From a virus, in the IMG/VR virus record IMGVR_UViG_3300033149_005670, positions 1-11,688 of that record: 11,688 nt of DNA, one strand, 5' to 3'. Position 1 is the stretch's first letter, and every line of letters starts with the position of its first letter. The notes below the pieces were generated by a model, which saw nothing but the letters and a program-made list of their open reading frames with translations, ran no database searches and was not told the DNA's origin. The position numbers and the translations under genes are program-made. Shown piece by piece: positions 816-11,042 of this stretch.

Positions 816-833
816 TCTCTCTCTCAGTGGTAA
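816..833. repeat. (TC)5 tract followed by agtggtaa, just after the stop at 808
   Basis: The sequence is tctctctctc + agtggtaa. The same two elements recur at 2129..2159, and agtggtaa recurs at 2224..2231. Confidence 0.6.
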
Positions 834-864
834 GAAAGATATATATACAAGTGATTCTTAAAAA

Positions 865-1929: not shown

Positions 1930-1967
1930 AAGGATTAGTTGAGGCAGAGTTGATCTTGGAAGAAGAA

Positions 1968-1975
1968 TTTAAAAA
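1968..1975 (+). promoter_or_regulatory. TATA-like box (tttaaaaa), 21 nt upstream of ATG 1997
   Basis: Same 8-mer + 21 nt + ATG geometry as five other sites, with a purine-rich stretch (aagaagaa) immediately upstream. Confidence 0.55.
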
Positions 1976-1996
1976 TGTCAAAGAGGAAGATTTGAA

Positions 1997-2122
1997 ATGG
2001 TGGTAAGCTGTGAATGTGCTGGTTTGCTGTTTTTGGATATATGTGCAGGTATAGGTCTACTTCTAATGATTTATGTAGCTTGGTTAAAATATCAGCAACT
2101 TGTTGTAGAGGGTAAGTTATAA
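1997..2122 (+). CDS. Micro-ORF, 41 aa, single predicted transmembrane helix (MVVSCECAGLLFLDICAGIGLLLMIYVAWLKYQQLVVEGKL); not in the track
   Basis: Hand translation shows a hydrophobic core. The promoter-spacing rule places a leaderless start exactly at this ATG. Confidence 0.45.
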   Translation: MVVSCECAGLLFLDICAGIGLLLMIYVAWLKYQQLVVEGKL

Positions 2123-2128
2123 TTCTGT

Positions 2129-2159
2129 AGTGGGTAATAGTGTGTGTGTCTCTCTCTCT
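2129..2159. repeat. agtgggtaa + (TG)4(TC)5 dinucleotide tract
   Basis: agtgggtaatag tgtgtgtg tctctctctct lies directly after the stop at 2122 and mirrors the elements at 816..833. Confidence 0.7.
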
Positions 2160-2168
2160 AAAAGTGTC

Positions 2169-2211
2169 TAATTAGTATTATTAAATATTAGTATTTTAGA
2201 GTATATTAGTA
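2169..2211. repeat. Three direct copies of a 9-mer (taattagta / atattagta / atattagta), iteron-like
   Basis: The attagta cores are at 2171, 2187 and 2205 (spacing 16 and 18 nt) within a very AT-rich stretch. Confidence 0.6.
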
Positions 2212-2275
2212 GCATATCAAGTAAGTGGTAACACTTTCTAGACTAAGATACGAATAAAAACCTTAGTTTGGCAAT

Positions 2276-2308
2276 ACCTTATTACCTTATTCTTAAGACA
2301 GACAGACA
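2276..2308. repeat. Tandem accttatt x2 followed by (gaca)3
   Basis: accttatt is at 2276..2283 and 2284..2291, and gacagacagaca is at 2297..2308. ccttattct recurs at 2372..2380. Confidence 0.6.
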
Positions 2309-2383
2309 CACTAACTTAGGCCTCTTTCATCCTTCGACTAAACATCAGAATCTTTTTGAGTATAGTTGTATCCTTATTCTACC

Positions 2384-2539
2384 TTAACGACACAGCAAGC
2401 AGACTTCCATAAGCTTGTCATTACAGAAGACTATACGATCACACTTAGAACATCTTTTTGCGACTATAGCTGATGTTGCGATTAAGGGTATTTCTTTGAG
2501 TTCTTTTAAGTTTATCTCATCGTGTAGTCTTTCTCCCAT
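2384..2539 (-). CDS. Micro-gene on the minus strand: 51-aa zinc-ribbon protein (C-x2-C-x13-C-x2-C), a candidate regulator
   Basis: Hand reverse-translation gives MGERLHDEINLKELKEIPLIATSAIVAKRCSKCDRIVFCNDKLMEVCLLCR*. A TATA-like box sits exactly 21 nt upstream on the minus strand. It is the only convincing minus-strand gene. Confidence 0.55.
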   Translation of the reverse strand: MGERLHDEINLKELKEIPLIATSAIVAKRCSKCDRIVFCNDKLMEVCLLCR

Positions 2540-2560
2540 AGATTTCTGTAGAATAGGATG

Positions 2561-2568
2561 TATATAAA
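2561..2568 (-). promoter_or_regulatory. TATA-like box (tttatata on the minus strand), 21 nt upstream of the zinc-ribbon ATG
   Basis: + strand tatataaa at 2561..2568, then 21 nt (2540..2560), then cat (= ATG) at 2537..2539. Confidence 0.55.
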
Positions 2569-2625
2569 AGTTGTTTACTACTCATGAGTTTTTCTTTACT
2601 TTTAGGAACATCACTTATCAATAGT

Positions 2626-2633
2626 TTTATATA
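2626..2633 (+). promoter_or_regulatory. TATA-like box (tttatata) with no downstream ORF; candidate promoter of a non-coding transcript
   Basis: It is divergent from the zinc-ribbon promoter. The 21-nt rule predicts a start at about G2655, and no ORF longer than about 25 codons follows on the + strand before 3188. Confidence 0.45.
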
Positions 2634-2645
2634 TTTTAGAAACTT

Positions 2646-2666
2646 CAGACTTGCGTAGCAAGTCTG
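2646..2666. promoter_or_regulatory. Perfect 9-bp inverted repeat with a 3-nt centre (cagacttgc gta gcaagtctg); candidate operator
   Basis: The reverse complement of 2646..2654 equals 2658..2666. The centre (2656) coincides with the start predicted from the 2626 TATA box. The half-site cagactt also occurs at 2403..2409. Confidence 0.5.
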
Positions 2667-2751
2667 TCTACCTAAAACATAAAAAGACTATTTAGTTCTG
2701 CTCCTAAAAGTAACAAAACAAACCTTTCTTGACTTACACCCCCCCTTTTCT

Positions 2752-2823
2752 TTAGTGAACTTGGCCTTCTTGGCCAAGTGGGCTCTATAGAGCCCATCCC
2801 TTCAAGAAGAAGGGATTCACTAA
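2752..2823 (+). other. Gap-free four-way junction (cloverleaf-like but not tRNA); could form in RNA or as extruded DNA
   Basis: The closing stem is 2752..2759 with 2816..2823 (8 bp). Hairpin 1 is 2760..2766 / 2772..2778 (loop ttctt). Hairpin 2 is 2779..2785 / 2790..2796 (loop tata). Hairpin 3 is 2797..2803 / 2809..2815 (loop aagaa). All pairs are Watson-Crick and no base is unpaired between helices. Confidence 0.75.
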
Positions 2824-2836
2824 CCCAGGACTTCTT

Positions 2837-2873
2837 CTTCTGGCCTTAGTGAGCCTCTGCTTCTGGCCTTAGT
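2837..2873 (+). repeat. 14-nt direct repeat cttctggccttagt, two copies 23 nt apart
   Basis: Copies are at 2837..2850 and 2860..2873. The uggccu core of either copy can pair with aggcca at 2908..2913. Confidence 0.7.
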
Positions 2874-3030
2874 AGTTATCCGCTACACCGGGTAACTCAA
2901 GATGAATAGGCCATTTTGTAAAGCTGTTCCATAAGAAATAGAGCATAGGTAACCTCCATTTCCAGTGGAACTCAGAATATTAGCGAGAGTTGTCACTACA
3001 CAATAGTGATTTGCTTAACCCTCCAGAAAC

Positions 3031-3057
3031 TTTTTAAAATTTTTAATATTTTAAAAA
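3031..3057 (+). terminator. Oligo-T runs within an AT-only inverted repeat (tttttaaaa ... ttttaaaaa)
   Basis: There is a T5 run at 3031..3035 and a T4 run at 3041..3044. 3031..3039 is the reverse complement of 3049..3057. This could be an oligo-T terminator or an easily melted duplex. Confidence 0.3.
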
Positions 3058-3158
3058 TCTCATTTCACTTATTATATAGAGTGAGGTGGATAGTTCATCT
3101 TGATATCCAAAACATCACTCAACTTTTTAATTTTTTTAAAAAAAGAAAAAACAAAAAG

Positions 3159-3166
3159 TATTTAAA
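3159..3166 (+). promoter_or_regulatory. TATA-like box (tatttaaa), 21 nt upstream of ATG 3188; promoter of the packaging/structural operon
   Basis: The 8-mer and spacing are identical to the site at 7982..7989, with an A-rich stretch (acaaaaag) upstream. Confidence 0.6.
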
Positions 3167-3187
3167 GAAGTTCGCATAACTCTTTTA

Positions 3188-3397
3188 ATGGGAATCAGGA
3201 AAAAGATGACTGCTGTCATAGGAAACAAGAATCAATCACGATGGAACACCATAAAGCAAAACTCAGAAGCGATTTTGGAACAGGCAAATATGCAGGTAAT
3301 GCTTCAAACAGAGATTCTAAAGATAGCAAAGAAGAAGTTAAAAGGAACAAAGGAGATAGATATATCAAACTTGATAAGTGGCAAGAAGAAGTCTTAA
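3188..3397 (+). CDS. Small basic protein (69 aa), overlapping the terminase N-terminus in another frame
   Basis: The ATG is exactly at the leaderless position predicted by the promoter rule. It overlaps 3241..3397 of the terminase ORF, and its function is unknown. Confidence 0.4.
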   Translation: MGIRKKMTAVIGNKNQSRWNTIKQNSEAILEQANMQVMLQTEILKIAKKKLKGTKEIDISNLISGKKKS

Positions 3398-4674
3398 ATG
3401 CAAAAGGACATTTCTTATTGTGCACTGGTAGACAAGTAGGTAAAACAACTATTTTTGCGATTAAAGCAGCTGAAAGAATGATATCTCAAAAGGGGTGCAG
3501 AATTATAGCTGTTTCTCTTACAGAAGATCAGGCCTTTCTTATGAAAACCATGGTTCAGGATTACCTGGAAAAGAAGTATAAATCTTATTTGAAAGTTAAG
3601 AAAGAGCATAAACCAACAAAAAACAGAATTATTCTAAATAATGGAAGTTCATACATCGTTAGACCTGTTGGAAATACTGGAGATGCAGTTAGAGGGTTTA
3701 CAGGCGATGTTTTAATTATAGACGAGGCGAGTAGAATGCCTGAAAGTGTTTTTATAGCTTCAAAACCAACATTACTAACAACTGGTGGAGATATTTGGAT
3801 GTGCTCGACTCCTTTTGGAAAGAAAGGCTACTTTTACGAATCCTGGCTTAATAAAAACAAAAGATTCAAAGTTTTTCACATTTCAAGCGAGAAAGTCATC
3901 CAGGATAGAGAGATAAGCGAAAGTTGGAGTGAGGAAAAAAGAGAATCTGCCATAAGAATGCTTGAAGAAGAGAAAAAAGACATGTCTACACTTCAATATG
4001 CCCAGGAATATTTAGGAATGTTTACAGAAGATCTAAGGCAGTTCTTTCCTGATGAGTTAATAGAACAGGTCTGCACAGGCAAGAGAAATCAGCCTTTTAA
4101 TTTAGCTCCTAAGTTCTATATGGGAGTGGATATTGCAAGATTAGGAGAGGATAAAAGTGTCTTTGCAATAGTTAACAAAATACGAGATAATCTATTCCAT
4201 CAGGTAGAAAATATAGTAACATCAAAGAAAAGAACTACTGAAACCTTTGATAAGATAGTTGATTTAGAGCAGATGTGGAAGTTTAAACAAATAGGAATAG
4301 ATGCAGGTTCAGGAAGTTTAGGTGTTGGGGTGTTTGACTTCCTTTTAAGAGAACCAATTATCAGGAAAAAGGTTATAGACCTGGATAATGCAAGAATAAT
4401 GAAAGATAGCAGAGGGGAAAAAACAGGAAGATGGTTTAAAGAAGCTTCTTATGCTAATATGTTAATGTTGATGGAAAAAGGAAGAGTTAGACTTCTTGAT
4501 GATGATGAGATAAAACTCTCTTTGAAATCAGTTCAATATGAATACTCTATTAAGCCAGGACAGAAGTCTAAGATGATAATATTTGGAAGAAATCATGATA
4601 TTGTGGAAGCAATTCAAAGAGCACTATGGTTAGCAAATCAGAAAACTATAAATACACAGATAAGTTACATTTAA
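3241..4674 (+). CDS. terL: Terminase large subunit (packaging ATPase plus nuclease)
   Basis: Walker A is CTGRQVGKTT and Walker B is DVLIIDEAS, followed by a CSTPFG coupling motif. The C-terminal RNase H-like nuclease has acidic motifs (MGVDIARLGEDKSV, IGIDAGSGSLG, HDIVEAIQ). Length is 477 aa. Confidence 0.93.
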   Translation: MEHHKAKLRSDFGTGKYAGNASNRDSKDSKEEVKRNKGDRYIKLDKWQEEVLNAKGHFLLCTGRQVGKTTIFAIKAAERMISQKGCRIIAVSLTEDQAFLMKTMVQDYLEKKYKSYLKVKKEHKPTKNRIILNNGSSYIVRPVGNTGDAVRGFTGDVLIIDEASRMPESVFIASKPTLLTTGGDIWMCSTPFGKKGYFYESWLNKNKRFKVFHISSEKVIQDREISESWSEEKRESAIRMLEEEKKDMSTLQYAQEYLGMFTEDLRQFFPDELIEQVCTGKRNQPFNLAPKFYMGVDIARLGEDKSVFAIVNKIRDNLFHQVENIVTSKKRTTETFDKIVDLEQMWKFKQIGIDAGSGSLGVGVFDFLLREPIIRKKVIDLDNARIMKDSRGEKTGRWFKEASYANMLMLMEKGRVRLLDDDEIKLSLKSVQYEYSIKPGQKSKMIIFGRNHDIVEAIQRALWLANQKTINTQISYI

Positions 4675-4675
4675 T

Positions 4676-5026
4676 ATGGCAGAAACTATGTGCACCTCAG
4701 GACAAGCAATAGCAAGAGCAGGAGCTCATGCAAATTCTTCTGTTATAATTGATAAAACTATTATGGATGCATGGAGTAATGATGCTGAGAGACAGATAGA
4801 AGCTGAGACTGGATTGTCCATAGTATCTAATTTTGAAAATTATCAATTAAGTGGAGCTGCCTCAGCTGCTTGTGCTGCATTATGGGCTAATAACATTATA
4901 GCTTATGATACAACAGGGTATTTATCAAGAGAAGCTGACACTCTTTTAAATGTAAATGATGCAGTATATAAAGCTTGCATTAAGAACATGGATAAAAACA
5001 AAACTAAATTAACTTCACCAATATAA
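4676..5026 (+). CDS. Hypothetical virion protein (116 aa, helical); possibly a head-tail adaptor
   Basis: It is tightly coupled to terL, starting 1 nt after its stop. Its size and Ala-rich helical character resemble gp6-like connectors, but this is a weak resemblance only. Confidence 0.75.
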   Translation: MAETMCTSGQAIARAGAHANSSVIIDKTIMDAWSNDAERQIEAETGLSIVSNFENYQLSGAASAACAALWANNIIAYDTTGYLSREADTLLNVNDAVYKACIKNMDKNKTKLTSPI

Positions 5027-5027
5027 A

Positions 5028-5675
5028 ATGTTTCAAAAACCTTATCAAACTCAGAATGTTCCTCTTATTAATTATAACTTTACAGATACAATTACAGGAG
5101 TTTCTTATAAAACATTCTATGCAGGAGATGCTTCAGGAACTAAATTTTTAATATCTTCTCCAACTGCTTCTTCATGGGGGGGAATAACTCAGGTAGGAAA
5201 CAGCATATATCAAGGTAGTTTAGTTTTAGCAGGAACTTATAACTTTGATACAACTTTTAATATTCCTCAAATAATAGAAGGGGATGCAGTAGCACAATTT
5301 ACATTAGGCCAGTATTGGGAAGGAAATGCAACAGGAACAAGAAGACAAGCAAGAATATCTTTGCAGAAAAATACAGTTGAATTAATAAGTGGAGCAACTA
5401 CTGCAACAGTAGCAGCTGATGGAAGTGCAGGTGATACTTTATCAGCACCAGAAGCGATTATATTACCAGTTCCAAAAACATCTTTCGCAATAGGAGATAC
5501 TTTAAGAATGGAAGTTAAGATATATGGTCAGGGTCAGGGAAGTCCAGGCCAAGATATAAAACCAGGAATAGGAACAGATCCAAATGGTGCAAAGGATGAA
5601 GGAACTAAGAAAGTTATAGAAGATACAGACTCAACAATATTTAAACTACACTTGCCATTTAGGGCAGATATATAA
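5028..5675 (+). CDS. Hypothetical beta-rich structural protein (215 aa)
   Basis: The ORF is coupled on both sides (a TAATG overlap with the portal gene) and has a Gly/Thr/Ser-rich composition. It contains a G7 tract at 5176..5182. Confidence 0.8.
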   Translation: MFQKPYQTQNVPLINYNFTDTITGVSYKTFYAGDASGTKFLISSPTASSWGGITQVGNSIYQGSLVLAGTYNFDTTFNIPQIIEGDAVAQFTLGQYWEGNATGTRRQARISLQKNTVELISGATTATVAADGSAGDTLSAPEAIILPVPKTSFAIGDTLRMEVKIYGQGQGSPGQDIKPGIGTDPNGAKDEGTKKVIEDTDSTIFKLHLPFRADI

Positions 5676-6742
5676 TGGCGAACTTTGACATAAGACAAAC
5701 AACAACAACAGGACTCAAAACAGGAGTTCCAAACTTCTCTATAGATGCAACTCAAGTGTCAGGAATACAAGATGCTCCGGAAACAAAGCAGACATTTGAA
5801 GAATTTAACAATAGATTTACTTACTATGACACAATTCCAGAACTAAAAAAAGCCATTCAAGTCTATGCAACATGGGTTTTAGGACAGGGTTATGATTCTC
5901 CTCAAAGTGTAATTTTAGATAATATAACAGGTAGTGGAGAGGACTCTTTTACATCTATTCTATGGAACTTGCTTGTTACAAAGAAGATTAATGGAGATGC
6001 TTTTGCTGAAATTGTGAGAAATGATAAAGGAACTTTGATTAATCTTAAACCTTTAAATCCTCAAAGGATGGCTGTAATCTTCAGCAAGAAAGGAGTTATA
6101 GATAGATATGAGTATCAGGGAAGAAAAGAACCATTTACACCTGATAAGATATTTCACTTAGTAAATGATAGAATAGCAGATTCTACTCATGGAGATTCTG
6201 TAATTGATGCTTTGAAATGGTTAATTGATGCAAGGCAGGAAGCTATGAGAGACTGGAGAAGAATATCGCATAGGAGCACAATAAGAGTGCTGATAGTTGA
6301 TGAGGATGATCCTGCTAAATTAACAACTTTGAAAACTCAGTATAAAGATGCAATTAAAAATGGAGAGGTTTTGATTCTGCCAGGGAAACCAGGCGAGAAG
6401 GCTTTTCAGGACTTGCAGCTTCCTCCTGTAGAGGCCTTCTTGGCCTGGATTAGATATTTAGAAAATGCATTTTATAAAGCAGTTGGAACTCCAAAGACCT
6501 TAGCAGGAGATGCAGAAGGTATTCCTGAATCAGGGGGAAAGATGGTAGTTCTTACTCATGAACCTACTTATGTAAGAGAAGTTAATGATTTAGAAAATGA
6601 TATTTGGAATCAGTTAGCTATTAGAATTACATTTAAGAGACAGGCTTCACTTAAAGAGAATGTTCGGGAACAAGAAGGAAAGAGTATAAATCAAACTCAG
6701 GCAGTTCAGCCAAGTGATACAAATATAAGAGATATTAAATAA
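5675..6742 (+). CDS. Portal protein (small, 355 aa)
   Basis: Its position near terL and its portal-family-like motifs support the call (NGDAFAEIVRN..G.LINLKPLNP, HGDSVIDAL, and a helical PPVEAFLAWIRYLENAFYKAVGTP segment). Confidence 0.8.
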   Translation: MANFDIRQTTTTGLKTGVPNFSIDATQVSGIQDAPETKQTFEEFNNRFTYYDTIPELKKAIQVYATWVLGQGYDSPQSVILDNITGSGEDSFTSILWNLLVTKKINGDAFAEIVRNDKGTLINLKPLNPQRMAVIFSKKGVIDRYEYQGRKEPFTPDKIFHLVNDRIADSTHGDSVIDALKWLIDARQEAMRDWRRISHRSTIRVLIVDEDDPAKLTTLKTQYKDAIKNGEVLILPGKPGEKAFQDLQLPPVEAFLAWIRYLENAFYKAVGTPKTLAGDAEGIPESGGKMVVLTHEPTYVREVNDLENDIWNQLAIRITFKRQASLKENVREQEGKSINQTQAVQPSDTNIRDIK

Positions 6743-6924
6743 TGACAACAAAAACAAAACAACCTAAAACAGACTGGAGAGTTTTATGCATAGGTATATT
6801 ATGCCTTACAGCTTTAGAGCTATTTGCATTAAACAAAGGTATTAATGGAGTTCTATTGACTACTATTGTAGGAATAATAGCTTTAGCAATAGGTGTATCA
6901 ATTAAAAACCCATTAGTAGAGTAA
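6742..6924 (+). CDS. Small membrane protein (60 aa, two predicted TM helices)
   Basis: It has a TAATG overlap with the portal stop and two hydrophobic stretches (VLCIGILCLTALELFAL, VLLTTIVGIIALAIGV). Confidence 0.6.
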   Translation: MTTKTKQPKTDWRVLCIGILCLTALELFALNKGINGVLLTTIVGIIALAIGVSIKNPLVE

Positions 6925-6925
6925 A

Positions 6926-7921
6926 ATGACAACTTATACAAGGATGAAAAAAGCAACTTCTTTTCAGGAAAAGGAGAGGCTCAGGAAAAAGCACGAGGAA
7001 GAACTGGCTAAAAAGAGAGAAGCAAAAGCTCAGAAACTTGCAGAAGCTCAGGAAATAGGCAGAACAGCTCCAAGTTTTTCTGAGAAGGAACTGGGCAAAG
7101 AGGGGTATAAACAAGCTAAACTTGCTGCACAAGCACAAGTTCTTAAATCACAAGCACAGGCTACAAGAGAAGCAGAAGAAGCAAGAAGAAAAGAAGCAAA
7201 GGCTTTTTTAGAAGAAAGAGGGTTTTTTGAAGAAGCAGCTCCTGAAAGAGTAAGTTTAGCTCCTGAGGAAAGATTAGGGGGACAAATTCCTGTTGCAGGT
7301 GGAATATTAGGAGCAAGAAAAAGTTTAGTTCCAGAGCAAGGCACAATATTAAATTTAGCTAAAGATAAAGGATGGATAAAAGGAGAAGTAAAAGGGGAAG
7401 GTATTTTAATAGAGACTCCTGAGACTTTAAGAGAACAGGCTTTAAATGAAATACAAAAGGAAGTTATTAAAGAAGGTTTATCAGCAGGAGAAAGATTTGG
7501 TTCTTTAGTTGAGGGGATTCCTGTTATAGGTTCTCTTGCCAGTAAATATGCAACAGGATTAATAGAAGATCCTAAAGGAAATATAGAAACTATTGTTTCT
7601 GAAATAGCATCAGAAAGAGAAAGAGCATCTGTTTTAGCTGAAAAGGTAGCTACAGGAAAAATAAGCCCTTATGTTTTCTATGAGGAAATAGATGTTATGG
7701 AAGAAAATATAGCTGCATTAGAGCAAAGAATAAAACTTTTAATAAATTCTTCTCCTGCTTTGAGAGTAAATGCTGATAAAGTTCATAGAATAGAAGAACA
7801 GATTTTAAGGGCAAAGGAAAGAATATATATGGCCAAACAACTTGCAGCAGGGGGTATGGTAGTAGAGCCCACTGACACAAGTATATATTTTGAATTGGAG
7901 AAATTAAAAAGTGAAAGCTAA
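6926..7921 (+). CDS. Coiled-coil, Ala/Glu/Lys-rich protein (331 aa); scaffold or internal virion protein candidate
   Basis: A long ORF with charged heptad-like segments that sits between the portal and capsid modules. Confidence 0.8.
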   Translation: MTTYTRMKKATSFQEKERLRKKHEEELAKKREAKAQKLAEAQEIGRTAPSFSEKELGKEGYKQAKLAAQAQVLKSQAQATREAEEARRKEAKAFLEERGFFEEAAPERVSLAPEERLGGQIPVAGGILGARKSLVPEQGTILNLAKDKGWIKGEVKGEGILIETPETLREQALNEIQKEVIKEGLSAGERFGSLVEGIPVIGSLASKYATGLIEDPKGNIETIVSEIASERERASVLAEKVATGKISPYVFYEEIDVMEENIAALEQRIKLLINSSPALRVNADKVHRIEEQILRAKERIYMAKQLAAGGMVVEPTDTSIYFELEKLKSES

Positions 7922-7981
7922 AGAGTTTCCTTGGTGGTTTTGGATATTAATAGTTATTGCATTACTTTCATAATAGAAACA

Positions 7982-7989
7982 TATTTAAA
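7982..7989 (+). promoter_or_regulatory. TATA-like box (tatttaaa), 21 nt upstream of ATG 8011
   Basis: Exact geometry match, with agaaaca upstream. Confidence 0.6.
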
Positions 7990-8010
7990 TCTATTTCTAT
8001 TTATTTTTGA

Positions 8011-8277
8011 ATGGAAGAAGAAACAGAAGCTAAGCAAACAAAAGAAGAAGAGAAGAAGTCTTTTTTGAAAGAGGTTAAGGAAGAGAGAATAGCTCTTGAA
8101 GCTATTAGAGATGCGAATAAGCAGATTGTAGAAGAGCTGAAAGAACTAAGAGCTAAAGAGATAATTTCAGGAGATACATCTGCAGGACAGCCTAAAGAAA
8201 AACCAAAAGAAGAAACTCCTGAGGAGTATTCTAATAAATTAATTTCAGGAAAAATTAAAAATCCTGAACTTGAATAA
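8011..8277 (+). CDS. Acidic coiled-coil protein (88 aa); scaffolding-protein candidate
   Basis: It has a leaderless ATG, a highly charged helical sequence, and the classical position upstream of the capsid genes. Confidence 0.7.
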   Translation: MEEETEAKQTKEEEKKSFLKEVKEERIALEAIRDANKQIVEELKELRAKEIISGDTSAGQPKEKPKEETPEEYSNKLISGKIKNPELE

Positions 8278-8715
8278 ATGCACCTGGATTTTATTGCAGA
8301 AGCTATAGAAGAAGAACTTAATGAGTTTGAAAAGTGGTGGTCTACAAGAGTTTATCCTTTGCCTGTAACTAAGCCAGATGGAACTATTGAATCAAAACCA
8401 ATTCAAATTGGACTTAGAGCCAGGAGATATTATAGTTTAATCTTTCCAAAAGAAGCTCTTGATGTTGTTTTAAATACATTAAATCCTGAGAATTGTGTTG
8501 TTTCGATGGTAGATGGAAAAGGAACTAAGAAATTTAGGACTATTTTAAAATTGATGAGGAAAATTCTAAAATTAAAACCCATACCTAAAGCTGACAAAGA
8601 CAAAGGATTTCTTCCTGTGAGGCCTTTTAAGAACACAAGAATAGTTGGTTTAGGTATTAGAGAAGATAAAAACATAGTTACAGAAAAAGATGGCTCAACA
8701 CATGAAGGTCTATAA
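8278..8715 (+). CDS. Hypothetical protein (145 aa)
   Basis: The ATG immediately follows the upstream TAA. No recognisable motifs. Confidence 0.7.
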   Translation: MHLDFIAEAIEEELNEFEKWWSTRVYPLPVTKPDGTIESKPIQIGLRARRYYSLIFPKEALDVVLNTLNPENCVVSMVDGKGTKKFRTILKLMRKILKLKPIPKADKDKGFLPVRPFKNTRIVGLGIREDKNIVTEKDGSTHEGL

Positions 8716-8727
8716 AGTTCAGAAAGA

Positions 8728-8735
8728 TTTAAATA
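8728..8735 (+). promoter_or_regulatory. TATA-like box (tttaaata), 21 nt upstream of ATG 8757
   Basis: Exact geometry match. The 21-nt spacer gtttattctttacaatatttt closely resembles the spacer upstream of ATG 10114. Confidence 0.6.
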
Positions 8736-8756
8736 GTTTATTCTTTACAATATTTT

Positions 8757-9155
8757 ATGGCAAATGAAGCAGTGCTGGTTGACAGAATAGCAGATCCTAT
8801 TAATTTTGGTTGTGCTGATATAGCTATGGAGAAGGGAACTATTGTTTGCTTGTCAGGAGCAAGAGATGTTAAACCTACTTCTGCAGATAATGATATAGTA
8901 ATAGGTATTACTGCAAGAGAAAAGATTGCAGGAGATGGAAGATTATCTGTGCCTGTATTTGTTCAGGGAGTTTTTAGATGTCATAGTGATAGCACAATAG
9001 GAATAGGAACTCCTGTTGTAATTAGTGGTGCTAATACAATTAAAGCCCTTACTACTCTTGATGATGAAAAAGGTTATGTTCTTGGAAGAGCATTAGAAGC
9101 AGCAGGTTCTGCTGCTGATGATATTGAAGTCTTATTGGGACATGGTGGTGCATAA
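8757..9155 (+). CDS. DUF2190-like head decoration / capsid-associated protein (132 aa)
   Basis: It lies directly upstream of the major capsid gene. It has the Gly-rich beta pattern typical of this family (KGTIVCLSG, VIGITA, VFVQGVF, IGIGTPVVISG, GYVLGRALE). Confidence 0.55.
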   Translation: MANEAVLVDRIADPINFGCADIAMEKGTIVCLSGARDVKPTSADNDIVIGITAREKIAGDGRLSVPVFVQGVFRCHSDSTIGIGTPVVISGANTIKALTTLDDEKGYVLGRALEAAGSAADDIEVLLGHGGA

Positions 9156-9232
9156 TGGAAGAAGAAAATAAACAACCTGAGGATTTTGTTGAGGAAGTTA
9201 ATAAAGAATCCGAAGAAAATAAAGAAGAATAA
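9155..9232 (+). CDS. Micro-ORF, 25 aa, strongly acidic (MEEENKQPEDFVEEVNKESEENKEE); not in the track
   Basis: TAATG overlaps at both ends (9153-9157 and 9230-9234) bridge the decoration and capsid genes exactly. Confidence 0.4.
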   Translation: MEEENKQPEDFVEEVNKESEENKEE

Positions 9233-10083
9233 TGGCAGATAGAGTAGAAATGGCTGAAATAAGAGGATTAGATGTAGACAAAGCTGTGAAAGGCTTTGCT
9301 TTAACAAACTATATCTTTAAGAATCATGTAACTGTTAGCTCTATGAGTGGAGATAGTGTTAGATGGTATCAGGAAACTGCTGATGATTTGACTGCTACTG
9401 CACCTTCTAAAGTTGCAGATATTGCACCTTTAGCTACATTTACAAACTTAGAGCCAAGTTGGACTCGTCAGACTTCTTATCCAAAGAAATATGGAGCAAG
9501 AGGATTTATTTCACTTGAAGATTTAAAGTCTGCTGATATTGATATTTTAGCAAGAACTCTTTTAAGACTTACAAGAGGAGTAATTAAGCAGGTTGATTCA
9601 AGAATTTATAATATTATTAAAGGTGTTACTCTAACAGGGGCAGCTTTAGGAACTGGATGGGATGACACAACTAATGGAAAACCTTTAGTAGATATTCTCT
9701 CAGGGCAACAGGCTATTGCTGAACATGATTATGATATATCTTCAGGAGAGATATGGATGACTCCTAAGAACCACAGAGACTTAAAACAATATTTAATAGA
9801 TACCAAAGGGACTTACTTTACTCAATATGCAAGTGAGAAACTTAAGACTGGTGTAGTTATGAATGTGTTGGGATGGGATGTTGTAGTTTCAAATAATGTA
9901 ACTGCTGATGAGGTATGGATGGGACTGCCTAAGGTTGCATGCACTTGGAAAACTTATACAGACACAACTGCTAATGTAACTGATAAGCCAGGATTAGGTA
10001 AAGAGATAGTTGTATGGGAAATGGGAGAAGCTATTTTAACAGACCCTTATGCAGGTTACCTTATAACTGATGTAGATACATAA
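9232..10083 (+). CDS. Major capsid protein, HK97 fold (283 aa)
   Basis: Its size and synteny (scaffold, decoration, then capsid) support the call. So does a spine-helix-like segment (SLEDLKSADIDILARTLLRLTRGVIKQVDSRIYNII) and a C-terminal beta-rich region. Confidence 0.8.
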   Translation: MADRVEMAEIRGLDVDKAVKGFALTNYIFKNHVTVSSMSGDSVRWYQETADDLTATAPSKVADIAPLATFTNLEPSWTRQTSYPKKYGARGFISLEDLKSADIDILARTLLRLTRGVIKQVDSRIYNIIKGVTLTGAALGTGWDDTTNGKPLVDILSGQQAIAEHDYDISSGEIWMTPKNHRDLKQYLIDTKGTYFTQYASEKLKTGVVMNVLGWDVVVSNNVTADEVWMGLPKVACTWKTYTDTTANVTDKPGLGKEIVVWEMGEAILTDPYAGYLITDVDT

Positions 10084-10084
10084 A

Positions 10085-10092
10085 TATAAAAA
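10085..10092 (+). promoter_or_regulatory. TATA-like box (tataaaaa), 21 nt upstream of ATG 10114
   Basis: Exact geometry match, with the spacer ctttatttctttgaatatttt. Confidence 0.55.
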
Positions 10093-10113
10093 CTTTATTT
10101 CTTTGAATATTTT

Positions 10114-10248
10114 ATGACAATAGGACCAGATACAAAAGGATGTATGGCTGTTGATAAGGATTATCCTTATGAAGAAGGTTTGACAGCTGAAACAACTAAA
10201 CAAACAGGAAACCCTAATTTAGAAGAAGAGGGTTCTAAATATTTATAA
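10114..10248 (+). CDS. Micro-ORF, 44 aa (MTIGPDTKGCMAVDKDYPYEEGLTAETTKQTGNPNLEEEGSKYL); not in the track
   Basis: It has a leaderless ATG by the promoter rule, and its stop TAA (10246-10248) overlaps the fibre ATG (10248). Confidence 0.45.
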   Translation: MTIGPDTKGCMAVDKDYPYEEGLTAETTKQTGNPNLEEEGSKYL

Positions 10249-11042
10249 TGGGTGGCGAAGGAAGTGGAAGAAGACCTGACCCAGTAAAAGCTTTAATAGC
10301 TCAAAGAGCTCCACAAATGCCTGTTGCTGGAAGTGATTATATTATTCCAAACTTATCAGGAGATTTATCAAAAGGAAAAGTTATAGATACTCCTGTTAAT
10401 CCTAAAGACCCTGTTAACAAAGAATATGTTGATGCTGCTGGCGGAGGGGATTCTCCGTGGAGCACATCAGGCTTAAATATTTATTATAATGATGGAAATG
10501 TAGGAATAGGAATAACGGAGCCAAGTGCGAAGTTGGAGGTGGTAGAAACTGGAGTAACTAAAGATAGTTGGAAACTTAGTAACCCTCATAAAGCAATTGG
10601 TATTCAAGGGGATGGTGGTGCTTATTTCTCTGGAAGAGATGTAACAAATGATATAGAATTTGCAATGGGGACATCAGTCGTTGGTCGTAGTTTTGCTGGG
10701 TCTCTTACTAATCACGGATTTGATTTGAGGACTAATAATACAATCAGAATGATCATAGACAACAACGGAGACGTCGGTATTGGGACTGATAGTCCTTCCG
10801 AAAAATTACATATTTCAAATGGCGTGGCTATATACGATAGCGATAGAAGTATAACAGACCTTCACCATTTGGTTGATAAAAAATATGTTGATGAAGCAGT
10901 AACAGCGTTGGGTGCAAGGTATTATATGCTTAATGCTGATTCTGGAGAGGCAGATTACAAAAATTGTTCAACCACTCCATCGGCTGGCGGAGAGCAAAAT
11001 GTAAGCAAAGCAGATTTAACCCAACTGGCGAATTTATGCTGA
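10248..11042 (+). CDS. Tail-fibre / receptor-binding-like protein, N-terminal reading frame (264 aa)
   Basis: It carries fibre-type motifs: NKEYVD and DKKYVD, plus two G(N/D)VGIG-x4-5-P-S-x-KL modules (GNVGIGITEPSAKLEV, GDVGIGTDSPSEKLHI). It ends at TGA 11040-11042, while homologous coding sequence continues in another frame. Confidence 0.8.
   Translation: MGGEGSGRRPDPVKALIAQRAPQMPVAGSDYIIPNLSGDLSKGKVIDTPVNPKDPVNKEYVDAAGGGDSPWSTSGLNIYYNDGNVGIGITEPSAKLEVVETGVTKDSWKLSNPHKAIGIQGDGGAYFSGRDVTNDIEFAMGTSVVGRSFAGSLTNHGFDLRTNNTIRMIIDNNGDVGIGTDSPSEKLHISNGVAIYDSDRSITDLHHLVDKKYVDEAVTALGARYYMLNADSGEADYKNCSTTPSAGGEQNVSKADLTQLANLC

Follow-up and report, generated by a model that had tools for sequence, protein, structure and literature searches.

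For genes whose mRNA lacks a leader, the distance between promoter box and start codon has been described as about 26 nt for the archaeal box in the genomes that GeneMarkS-2 places in its group D, and as about 10 nt for the Pribnow box of bacteria (PMC6028130). The archaeal core promoter itself has been described in Thermococcus, with an 8-bp TATA box near −27, a B recognition element (BRE), rich in A, near −33 and, at −10, an A/T element (PMC5316973). In this study we deal with candidate promoters of this type in a viral genome, IMGVR_UViG_3300033149_005670, whose whole stretch of 11,688 nt is called the window below. A preliminary description of the window had pointed to 8-mers of A and T that precede ATG codons by exactly 21 nt, and had read them as archaeal TATA boxes with leaderless mRNAs. 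We compared the window with its relatives, and this reading was upheld in all computational tests run: most probably the boxes are archaeal BRE/TATA core promoters giving leaderless mRNAs, where the firing of the boxes, the transcription start site (TSS) at the ATG and the archaeal host are what we infer from the sequence.

Putative promoter motif and its spacing in related loci

Ninety related loci were collected, and the window was excluded from motif training. On the gene strand of these relatives the counts of [AT]8-Nd-ATG have their maxima at d = 21 (607) and d = 22 (577) over a background of about 430, and the opposite strand shows no spacing peak. Expectation-maximisation with 30 random seeds on 277 intergenic gaps of the relatives converges on AAAnnTtTAtAtA, that is, an A-rich BRE followed by a TATA box (AAAnnTTTAWAWA), and the refined weight matrix of 16 nt reads M-G-A-W-A-n-n-T-W-T-A-W-A-W-A-S. 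Its TATA part is T(.90) W T(.99) A(.80) W A(.98) W A(.97); its BRE part, M-G(.59)-A(.86)-W-A(.99), stands two bases before the TATA box and would give the promoter its direction.

Of 134 confident sites (61 loci), 74 have a spacer of 21 nt between the box and the called ATG, 13 one of 22 nt and 5 one of 20 nt, and at least one box-plus-spacing site is present in 82 of the 90 loci. Altogether the relatives hold 218 sites of at least 10 bits with an ATG at 20-22 nt, 173 of them at 21, and the motif sites follow gene orientation on both strands. The upstream profile of 351 starts lying after a gap of at least 28 nt has AAA at −34..−32, TTT at −29..−27 and A/W up to −22. It has in addition an AT peak at −10 (0.80 vs 0.62-0.67 at the flanks), which would fit a promoter-proximal element (PMC5316973). 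At 770 tightly coupled genes an enrichment of G at −14..−7 is found in place of the box.

The same profile bears on the possibility that the host is bacterial, for example a member of the candidate phyla radiation (CPR)/Patescibacteria. The 8-mer would then be a −10-like or T4-late-type element (TATAAATA) used by a bacterial or phage sigma factor, and the mRNA would carry a 5'-untranslated region (5'-UTR) of about 14 nt without a Shine-Dalgarno (SD) sequence. The box at 4647 is indeed TATAAATA, identical to the T4 late promoter consensus, and SD-free translation occurs in some bacteria. However, where a −35 element would be expected the profile of the relatives shows no signal, the box closes with A at 97% although a −10 hexamer needs T there, and the conserved AAA two bases upstream of the box has no bacterial counterpart; nor does a UTR-bearing mRNA offer a reason for a spacing of exactly 21 nt. 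In the window, sigma-70-like sites, sought as −35 TTGACA and −10 TATAAT (A2 and T6 invariant) at a spacing of 16-18 nt, are not enriched (31 vs 38.7±5.9 in shuffles), in agreement with the earlier remark that no bacterial −35/−10 pair fits; a single 9-of-12 match (7947-7974) stands upstream of any boxed gene start, and no sigma-like or gp55-like protein was found. A bacterial leaderless box would be expected about 10 nt from the start, or about 6-10 nt in group C (PMC6028130), and the conserved box lies at −29..−22, not at −12..−7. We thus consider a bacterial host improbable.

Sites in the window

We scored the window with the family-derived matrix, taking 10 bits or more as a match (Table 1). 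There are 11 matches vs 1.44±1.17 in shuffles, and an ATG follows at exactly 21 nt in five of them (3188, 4676, 8011, 8757 and 10114) vs 0.026 in shuffles, while any other spacer from 10 to 34 nt is represented by one match at most. Three AT-rich bacterial phages (62 kb) gave 2 matches at the same threshold with an ATG at 20-22 nt, opening open reading frames (ORFs) of 2 and 6 codons, vs 5 matches opening ORFs of 44-132 codons in the window.

Table 1. Candidate promoter boxes and structural genes of the window
Feature	Position	8-mer	Strand	Score (bits)	Remark
BRE/TATA agaaagaTATATATAc	833..848	840-847	+	17.4	highest score; 46 nt before ATG 894
Weak TATA-like box	1961..1976	1968-1975	+	6.3	21 nt before ATG 1997
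BRE/TATA aacaactTTTATATAc	2560..2575	2568-2561	−	9.7	moderate; 21 nt before ATG 2539
Orphan BRE/TATA	2619..2634	2626-2633	+	10.1	no ORF; predicted TSS near 2655
BRE/TATA caaaaagTATTTAAAg	3152..3167	3159-3166	+	12.3	21 nt before ATG 3188
BRE/TATA agaaaacTATAAATAc	4640..4655	4647-4654	+	15.4	21 nt before ATG 4676
BRE/TATA agaaacaTATTTAAAt	7975..7990	7982-7989	+	13.5	21 nt before ATG 8011
BRE/TATA agaaagaTTTAAATAg	8721..8736	8728-8735	+	17.0	21 nt before ATG 8757
BRE/TATA acataaaTATAAAAAc	10078..10093	10085-10092	+	13.6	21 nt before ATG 10114
Large terminase	3241-4674		+		PHROG match
Portal	5675-6742		+		PHROG match
Scaffold/decoration-like protein	8757-9155		+		PHROG match
HK97-type major capsid protein	9232-10083		+		PHROG match
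Tail fibre	10248-11042		+		PHROG match

All six [AT]8-N21-ATG sites listed earlier (1968→1997, 2568(−)→2539, 3159→3188, 7982→8011, 8728→8757 and 10085→10114) were confirmed as written, and the orphan box at 2626 was also found without an ORF; two strong boxes, 4647 and 840, had been missed. As a bare pattern, [AT]8-N21-ATG is loose. Counted on both strands, it occurs 20 times in the window vs 10.0±3.2 in 200 dinucleotide shuffles, none of which reached 20, so that the pattern is enriched about 2-fold and about half of the loose matches are due to chance. It is commoner at gene starts, being found at 7 of 20 gene-start ATGs vs 7 of 247 other plus-strand ATGs (Fisher p = 1e-5).

These counts allow us to weigh chance in an AT-rich genome, combined with the picking of ATGs that happen to lie 21 nt downstream. 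About 10 of the 20 loose matches are what chance would give, and nothing independent speaks for the ORFs at 1997 and 2539(−). For the five strong sites chance is nevertheless refuted, by the 0.026 sites expected and by the spacing peak and the orthologous conservation that the family shows with the window left out; it is possible for 1968 alone. As an account of the whole pattern it has practically no probability left.

The boxes stand in various settings. The weakest of the listed set, 1968, precedes a hydrophobic ORF of 41 amino acids (aa) at 1997-2122, and the minus-strand box precedes an ORF of 51 aa with CxxC...CxxC (2384-2539). The box at 4647 sits within the 3' end of the terminase gene, upstream of a gene of 116 aa (4676-5026); the gene after the box at 7982 has 88 aa (8011-8277). 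After the box at 8728 come 8757-9155 (scaffold/decoration-like), 9155-9232 and the major capsid gene in this order. The box at 10085 overlaps the capsid stop codon and is followed by a micro-gene of 44 aa (10114-10248) and then by the tail-fibre genes. The orphan box at 2626 points into a gene-poor region (2123-3187), and further orphan boxes are at 2253 and 3032. Two more sites were seen: a box at 1698 (1691-1706), with 12.7 bits, lies within a coding region 14 nt before ATG 1720, and the near-palindromic box at 7982 also scores 10.8 bits on the minus strand (7989-7982). These two could be internal or antisense promoters, or chance.

Conservation at orthologous genes

Among the relatives the box is found before the orthologues of g8757 in 44 loci, g4676 in 17, g8011 in 15, g10114 in 15, the terminase in 8 and the portal in 3. 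The protein alignments of g8757 across relatives begin at residue 1, and in its 37 distinct upstream sequences AAA..TtTAAAaA is held in register, with a variable sequence in the 21-nt spacer; in such protein-anchored upstream alignments the information content is concentrated in BRE and TATA. Since the box is kept while the spacer sequence varies, selection acts on the distance between box and ATG, and a selected distance would be expected only if the box fixes the 5'-end of the RNA relative to the start codon. The upstream regions of portal, capsid, g5028 and g8278 show no box, only stop-start coupling (with a GGGA SD in addition for g8278), and some orthologues have an SD in place of the box.

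It may be asked whether the element is a promoter at all, or whether it binds a viral regulator, enhances translation as an AT-rich sequence, or signals termination or processing. Some boxes stand where no terminator parts the units, where read-through would make a promoter dispensable, and the T-rich spacers resemble archaeal oligo-T termination signals. Yet by its sequence, inner spacing and orientation the motif is a canonical BRE plus TATA; coupled internal genes are not preceded by it, and before minus-strand genes it stands in the correct orientation. Translation enhancers need no fixed place 22-29 nt upstream of the ATG, and SD-like motifs accompany only 4% of the box-carrying starts. 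A function other than that of a promoter is very improbable in our judgement, and we keep to the reading of the boxes as BRE/TATA promoters.

Three micro-genes had been proposed on the strength of the pattern. The ORF 10114-10248 is conserved in 17 loci and the box is at the orthologous position in 15, whereas 1997-2122 and 2384-2539(−) have no homologue in the 90 relatives or in profile searches. The ORF 3188-3397 (69 aa) is conserved in 8 loci. From this comparison 10114-10248 and 3188-3397 appear as supported micro-genes, and 1997-2122 and 2384-2539(−) remain unsupported. Seventeen relatives have a gene for a ribbon-helix-helix (RHH)/Zn-ribbon regulator at about 1.2 kb upstream of the terminase; in 16 it is on the minus strand, and 12 of the 17 carry a strong box whose distance to the ATG of this gene is exactly 21 nt.

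As to the ORF 3188-3397, it runs in a different frame over the first 52 codons of the terminase, and its protein is about 70% identical in the nearest relatives. Most other relatives have their terminase start at the position of residue ~42 in the window protein, with a box 21 nt ahead of it, and both g1371 and this ORF are matched by the profile of the relatives' cluster 14. We may be dealing with a small-terminase-like gene or with frameshifting into the terminase gene.

Translation signals and predicted transcription units

The starts that follow a box have the features of leaderless genes as far as these can be read from sequence, namely a fixed promoter distance, no SD and an AUG start. 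Of the starts with a box at 20-22 nt, 4% have an SD-like tetramer at −17..−5; the figure is 48% for tightly coupled genes and 17% for random 13-mers. At a spacer of 21 the relatives have 139 ATG codons and 5 GTG codons. The earlier statement that the boxed starts of the window lack an SD motif fails for ATG 1997, which has an SD-like GAGG at 1983-1986. Leaderless first genes with SD-led internal genes, if the boxes act as proposed, are the dual scheme that GeneMarkS-2 calls group D.

The proposed mechanism would run as follows. The element consists of an A-rich BRE (M-G-A-W-A, with AAA at −34..−32), two unspecified bases and a TATA box T-W-T-A-W-A-W-A at −29..−22. TBP and TFB of the host would bind it and recruit the host RNA polymerase, and the polymerase would start about 21-22 nt past the box, at the A of the ATG or one base earlier. 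With a start at or near the ATG, the first gene of each unit would be translated leaderless, without SD, and the downstream genes would be reached by stop-start coupling, often with SD-like sites.

On this basis the genome would be divided into roughly seven to nine units, and the figure of about eight given before is a fair estimate (840, 2568(−), 3159, 4647, 7982, 8728 and 10085, with weak or orphan boxes in addition). The unit of box 840 would cover the genes 894-1929 and perhaps 1997; that of 2568(−) would be on the minus strand; that of 3159 would hold the ORF at 3188 and the terminase; those of 4647, 7982 and 8728 would hold the genes 4676-7921, 8011-8715 and 8757-10083, respectively; and that of 10085 would hold 10114 and the fibres and go on past the junction to 161-808. 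The weak or orphan boxes at 1968, 2253, 2626 and 3032 would stand beside these main units.

The first unit would be of a different kind. ATG 894 (gene 894-1232) carries an SD-like AGGAGAG at 881-887, and with a predicted TSS near 869 its leader would have 25 nt and include this SD; the box at 840 should thus give a leadered, SD-bearing mRNA beside the leaderless units. As regards the ends of transcripts, hairpin-plus-T intrinsic terminators are not enriched in the window (6 vs 6.4 in shuffles), and because no terminators are evident, nested, 3'-co-terminal transcripts are likely.

Domain of the host

The promoter grammar together with an Hjc-type resolvase makes an archaeal host likely, and we hold this with considerable confidence as far as sequence can tell. 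This resolvase, a small nuclease, is encoded in 15 relatives, and one member passes the Pfam Hjc cut-off. With a 13-member profile, 9 of 10 PDB matches are archaeal Hjc/Hje (1GEF at 1e-5, then 4TKK, 1HH1 and 2WCZ), and against a large protein database the top matches of the profile all belong to the same virus family, with no cellular homologue. A further sign of archaeal affinity is that the isolate nearest by terminase is Halogranum tailed virus 1.

Several observations weigh against an archaeal assignment. The Hjc gene is absent from the window. If +1 is the A of the ATG, a pyrimidine stands at −1 in only about 53% of cases, and the centre of the box, at −25.5 from the ATG, is one base nearer than the textbook −26/−27. 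The family matrix detects neither the promoters of SSV1 nor those of AFV1, and at a relaxed threshold it has several matches in the very AT-rich Mycoplasma phage P1; it is lineage-specific and no general archaeal detector. Relatives are found in six GTDB bins, labelled Methanomicrobia, Levyibacteriota, Saccharibacteria, Paceibacterota, Patescibacteria and Actinomycetota, that is, four CPR bacteria, one Actinomycetota and one archaeon, and the four CPR bins speak for a bacterial host, as does one terminase homologue whose label gives an Izemoplasmatales metagenome-assembled genome (MAG) as its source.

Regarding the bins, all six binned contigs, including those in CPR bins, are free-standing pieces of at most 12 kb. 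A box at 20-22 nt is present in all four of the contigs assigned to Levyibacteriota, Saccharibacteria, Patescibacteria and Actinomycetota, and since these bacterial-binned contigs carry the same box-plus-spacing, mis-binning is likely. With their mixed labels and free-standing contigs, the bins were judged to be binning noise and rejected as a source for the host. No integrated copy was seen; among the matches listed, the contigs have at most 12.6 kb, except one of 35 kb.

Two of the binned contigs are different. The Methanomicrobia-binned contig has boxes, none of them at the 20-22 nt spacing. In the Paceibacterota-binned contig (L009; 11,986 nt, 45% G+C, terminase 41% identical), a distant relative, no site with box and spacing reaches 10 bits; the contig may represent a branch of the same terminase lineage that has bacterial hosts, and may serve as a natural contrast for the promoter signal.

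As to the kind of archaeon, we lean slightly towards the reading that the whole cosmopolitan family, of the smallest tailed dsDNA viruses, belongs to archaeal hosts, possibly small-celled lineages of DPANN type which co-occur with CPR bacteria. A DPANN-type host is a reasonable guess and no more, made from the low G+C, the anoxic-lake and groundwater sources and the co-binning with CPR.

Genome and virus family

The window has an identical 114 nt at both ends, and from this terminal direct repeat the unique genome is 11,574 bp, circular or circularly permuted. Its G+C is 35%, and nearly every gene is on the plus strand. The structural module (3241..10083, plus strand) has internal genes in stop-start coupling (TAAATG, TAATG, ATGA), and its genes are also present among the core clusters of the family. 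The genome is that of a miniature tailed virus with terminase, portal, HK97 capsid and fibre. Scans of the window for tRNA and with Rfam gave no match. No replication protein was recognisable in the window or, by Pfam scan of cluster representatives, in the 148 accessory-gene clusters of the relatives; the Pfam matches of these clusters are methylases, HNH, RusA, CcdA-like ribbon-helix-helix, pentapeptide repeats, Laminin_G_3 and Hjc, the only diagnostic one.

Homologues of the terminase number more than 1,300, many on contigs of 11-12.6 kb, and are on at least 227 contigs in IMG/VR; six relatives with terminal overlaps are complete genomes of 11.5-12.4 kb. Among the sources of the family are an Antarctic meromictic lake, groundwater, marine water (Tara) and deep-sea sediment. 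One sample from Ace Lake (IMG 3300035698) accounts for eleven of the 80 relatives listed from IMG/VR. In a search of 50,697 deposited phage and virus records the nearest isolate terminase was that of Halogranum tailed virus 1 (25% identity), and the capsid protein of the window had no match. We found no description of archaeal tailed viruses of about 12 kb in the literature, and this is apparently a large, undescribed family of very small tailed viruses. Genomes of 11.5-12.4 kb rank among the smallest of tailed viruses, and the family may be autonomous or a satellite.

One close relative lies on a longer contig, at the end of its 35,193 nt (L002, ENA contig k141_36388; 79% terminase identity). 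Its fibre region runs on into a 1,090-aa Laminin_G_3 protein similar to that of an integrase-bearing element of 26.6 kb (L096/L097). A chimeric assembly may explain this, or a hybrid virus of larger size. The contig was tried as a clue to the host and set aside: the related fibre protein leads to the 26.6-kb element, from a Challenger Deep virome, and to no host.

The gene-poor region of about 1 kb at 2123-3187, where the GC skew falls to about zero, also has features of its own. CT/GT dinucleotide runs are at 2140-2160, and also at 820-836, and perfect hairpins are at 2646-2666 and 2781-2796. Upstream of the terminase, more than 10 relatives share conserved non-coding blocks (about 2750-3060 in the window), namely AGTTATYCG...CGRATAACT, the palindrome CATTTCCAGTGGAAC and TYAGCGAGAGTTG. 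An RNA structure in these blocks was considered and rejected, with a single covarying pair (AGTTATYCG...CGRATAACT) and inverted repeats that look more like DNA sites; the blocks are probably a pac/cos site or an origin, and an RNA is less likely.

Another observation concerns the tail-fibre gene. It ends at TGA 11040, directly followed by an A6 run, and fibre-like sequence with GDVGIGT repeats goes on in the +1 frame, which is open from 11020 via the terminal repeat to a stop at 156-158 and has no ATG, GTG or TTG near its beginning. A +1 frameshift could explain the break, and so could a split gene or an indel in the assembly. Recoding of TGA 11040 was rejected: the same frame stops again after 15 codons, and TGA ends several other genes.

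Significance and comparison with known systems

The promoter mechanism is textbook and so no discovery in itself; it is already known, and the window is a new instance of it. Its value is diagnostic. A BRE/TATA element at −34..−22, together with SD-free first genes and SD-like coupled genes, permits a host call at the level of the domain, which is useful for an uncultured family without CRISPR, tRNA or provirus link, and the same signal flags probable mis-binned viral contigs in MAGs of CPR bacteria. The positions of the boxes fix start codons and support the micro-genes 10114-10248 and 3188-3397, and they lead to a predicted map of transcription for a genome that ranks among the smallest known from tailed viruses. 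They also provide short, strong and well-defined candidate promoter fragments, e.g. 8721-8759, for archaeal in vitro transcription systems.

With sigma-70 and T4 late promoters (TATAAATA at −10) the window shares an A/T-rich hexamer or octamer and differs in having no −35, a box that ends in A, an AAA two bases upstream and the wrong distance to the ATG. Of the archaeal tailed viruses (Caudoviricetes), Halogranum tailed virus 1 and Methanobacterium virus PhiF1, whose terminases come closest among isolates, have the module of terminase, portal and HK97 capsid in common with it, although the terminase identity is 23-25% and their genomes have 74-144 kb vs 11.6 kb here.

For the position of the TSS we used the annotation of SSV1, because the matrix failed on the positive control of SSV1 and AFV1. 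In the record NC_001338 of SSV1 (Sulfolobus spindle-shaped virus 1), the TATA 8-mer ends 22 (T3), 21 (T4) and 22 (T9) nt before the mapped TSS; the TSS is one base before the ATG for T3, T4 and T9 and on the ATG for Tind. By this geometry the starts predicted for the window would be on the A of each ATG. SSV1 is alike in that a viral genome is split into units by box A/TATA elements with T-rich spacers. It differs in its boxes, TTTTTAAA or TTTATAAA, which are preceded by G/C-rich bases where the window has GAAA, and this is why the family matrix leaves its promoters unscored; moreover it is a fusellovirus, unrelated in virus type and host.

Finally, the window is to be compared with the archaeal core promoter itself (group D of PMC6028130; mapped in Thermococcus, Haloferax and Sulfolobus). 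Shared with it are the 8-bp box of TTTAWATA type, the A-rich BRE upstream, the distance of about 26 nt from the start codon and perhaps the AT-rich −10, and with the archaeal leaderless scheme the SD-free first genes with ATG and the SD-like internal genes. Unlike the textbook promoter, the spacing here is unusually sharp, with 21 nt in more than half of the sites and a box centre about one base closer to the start.

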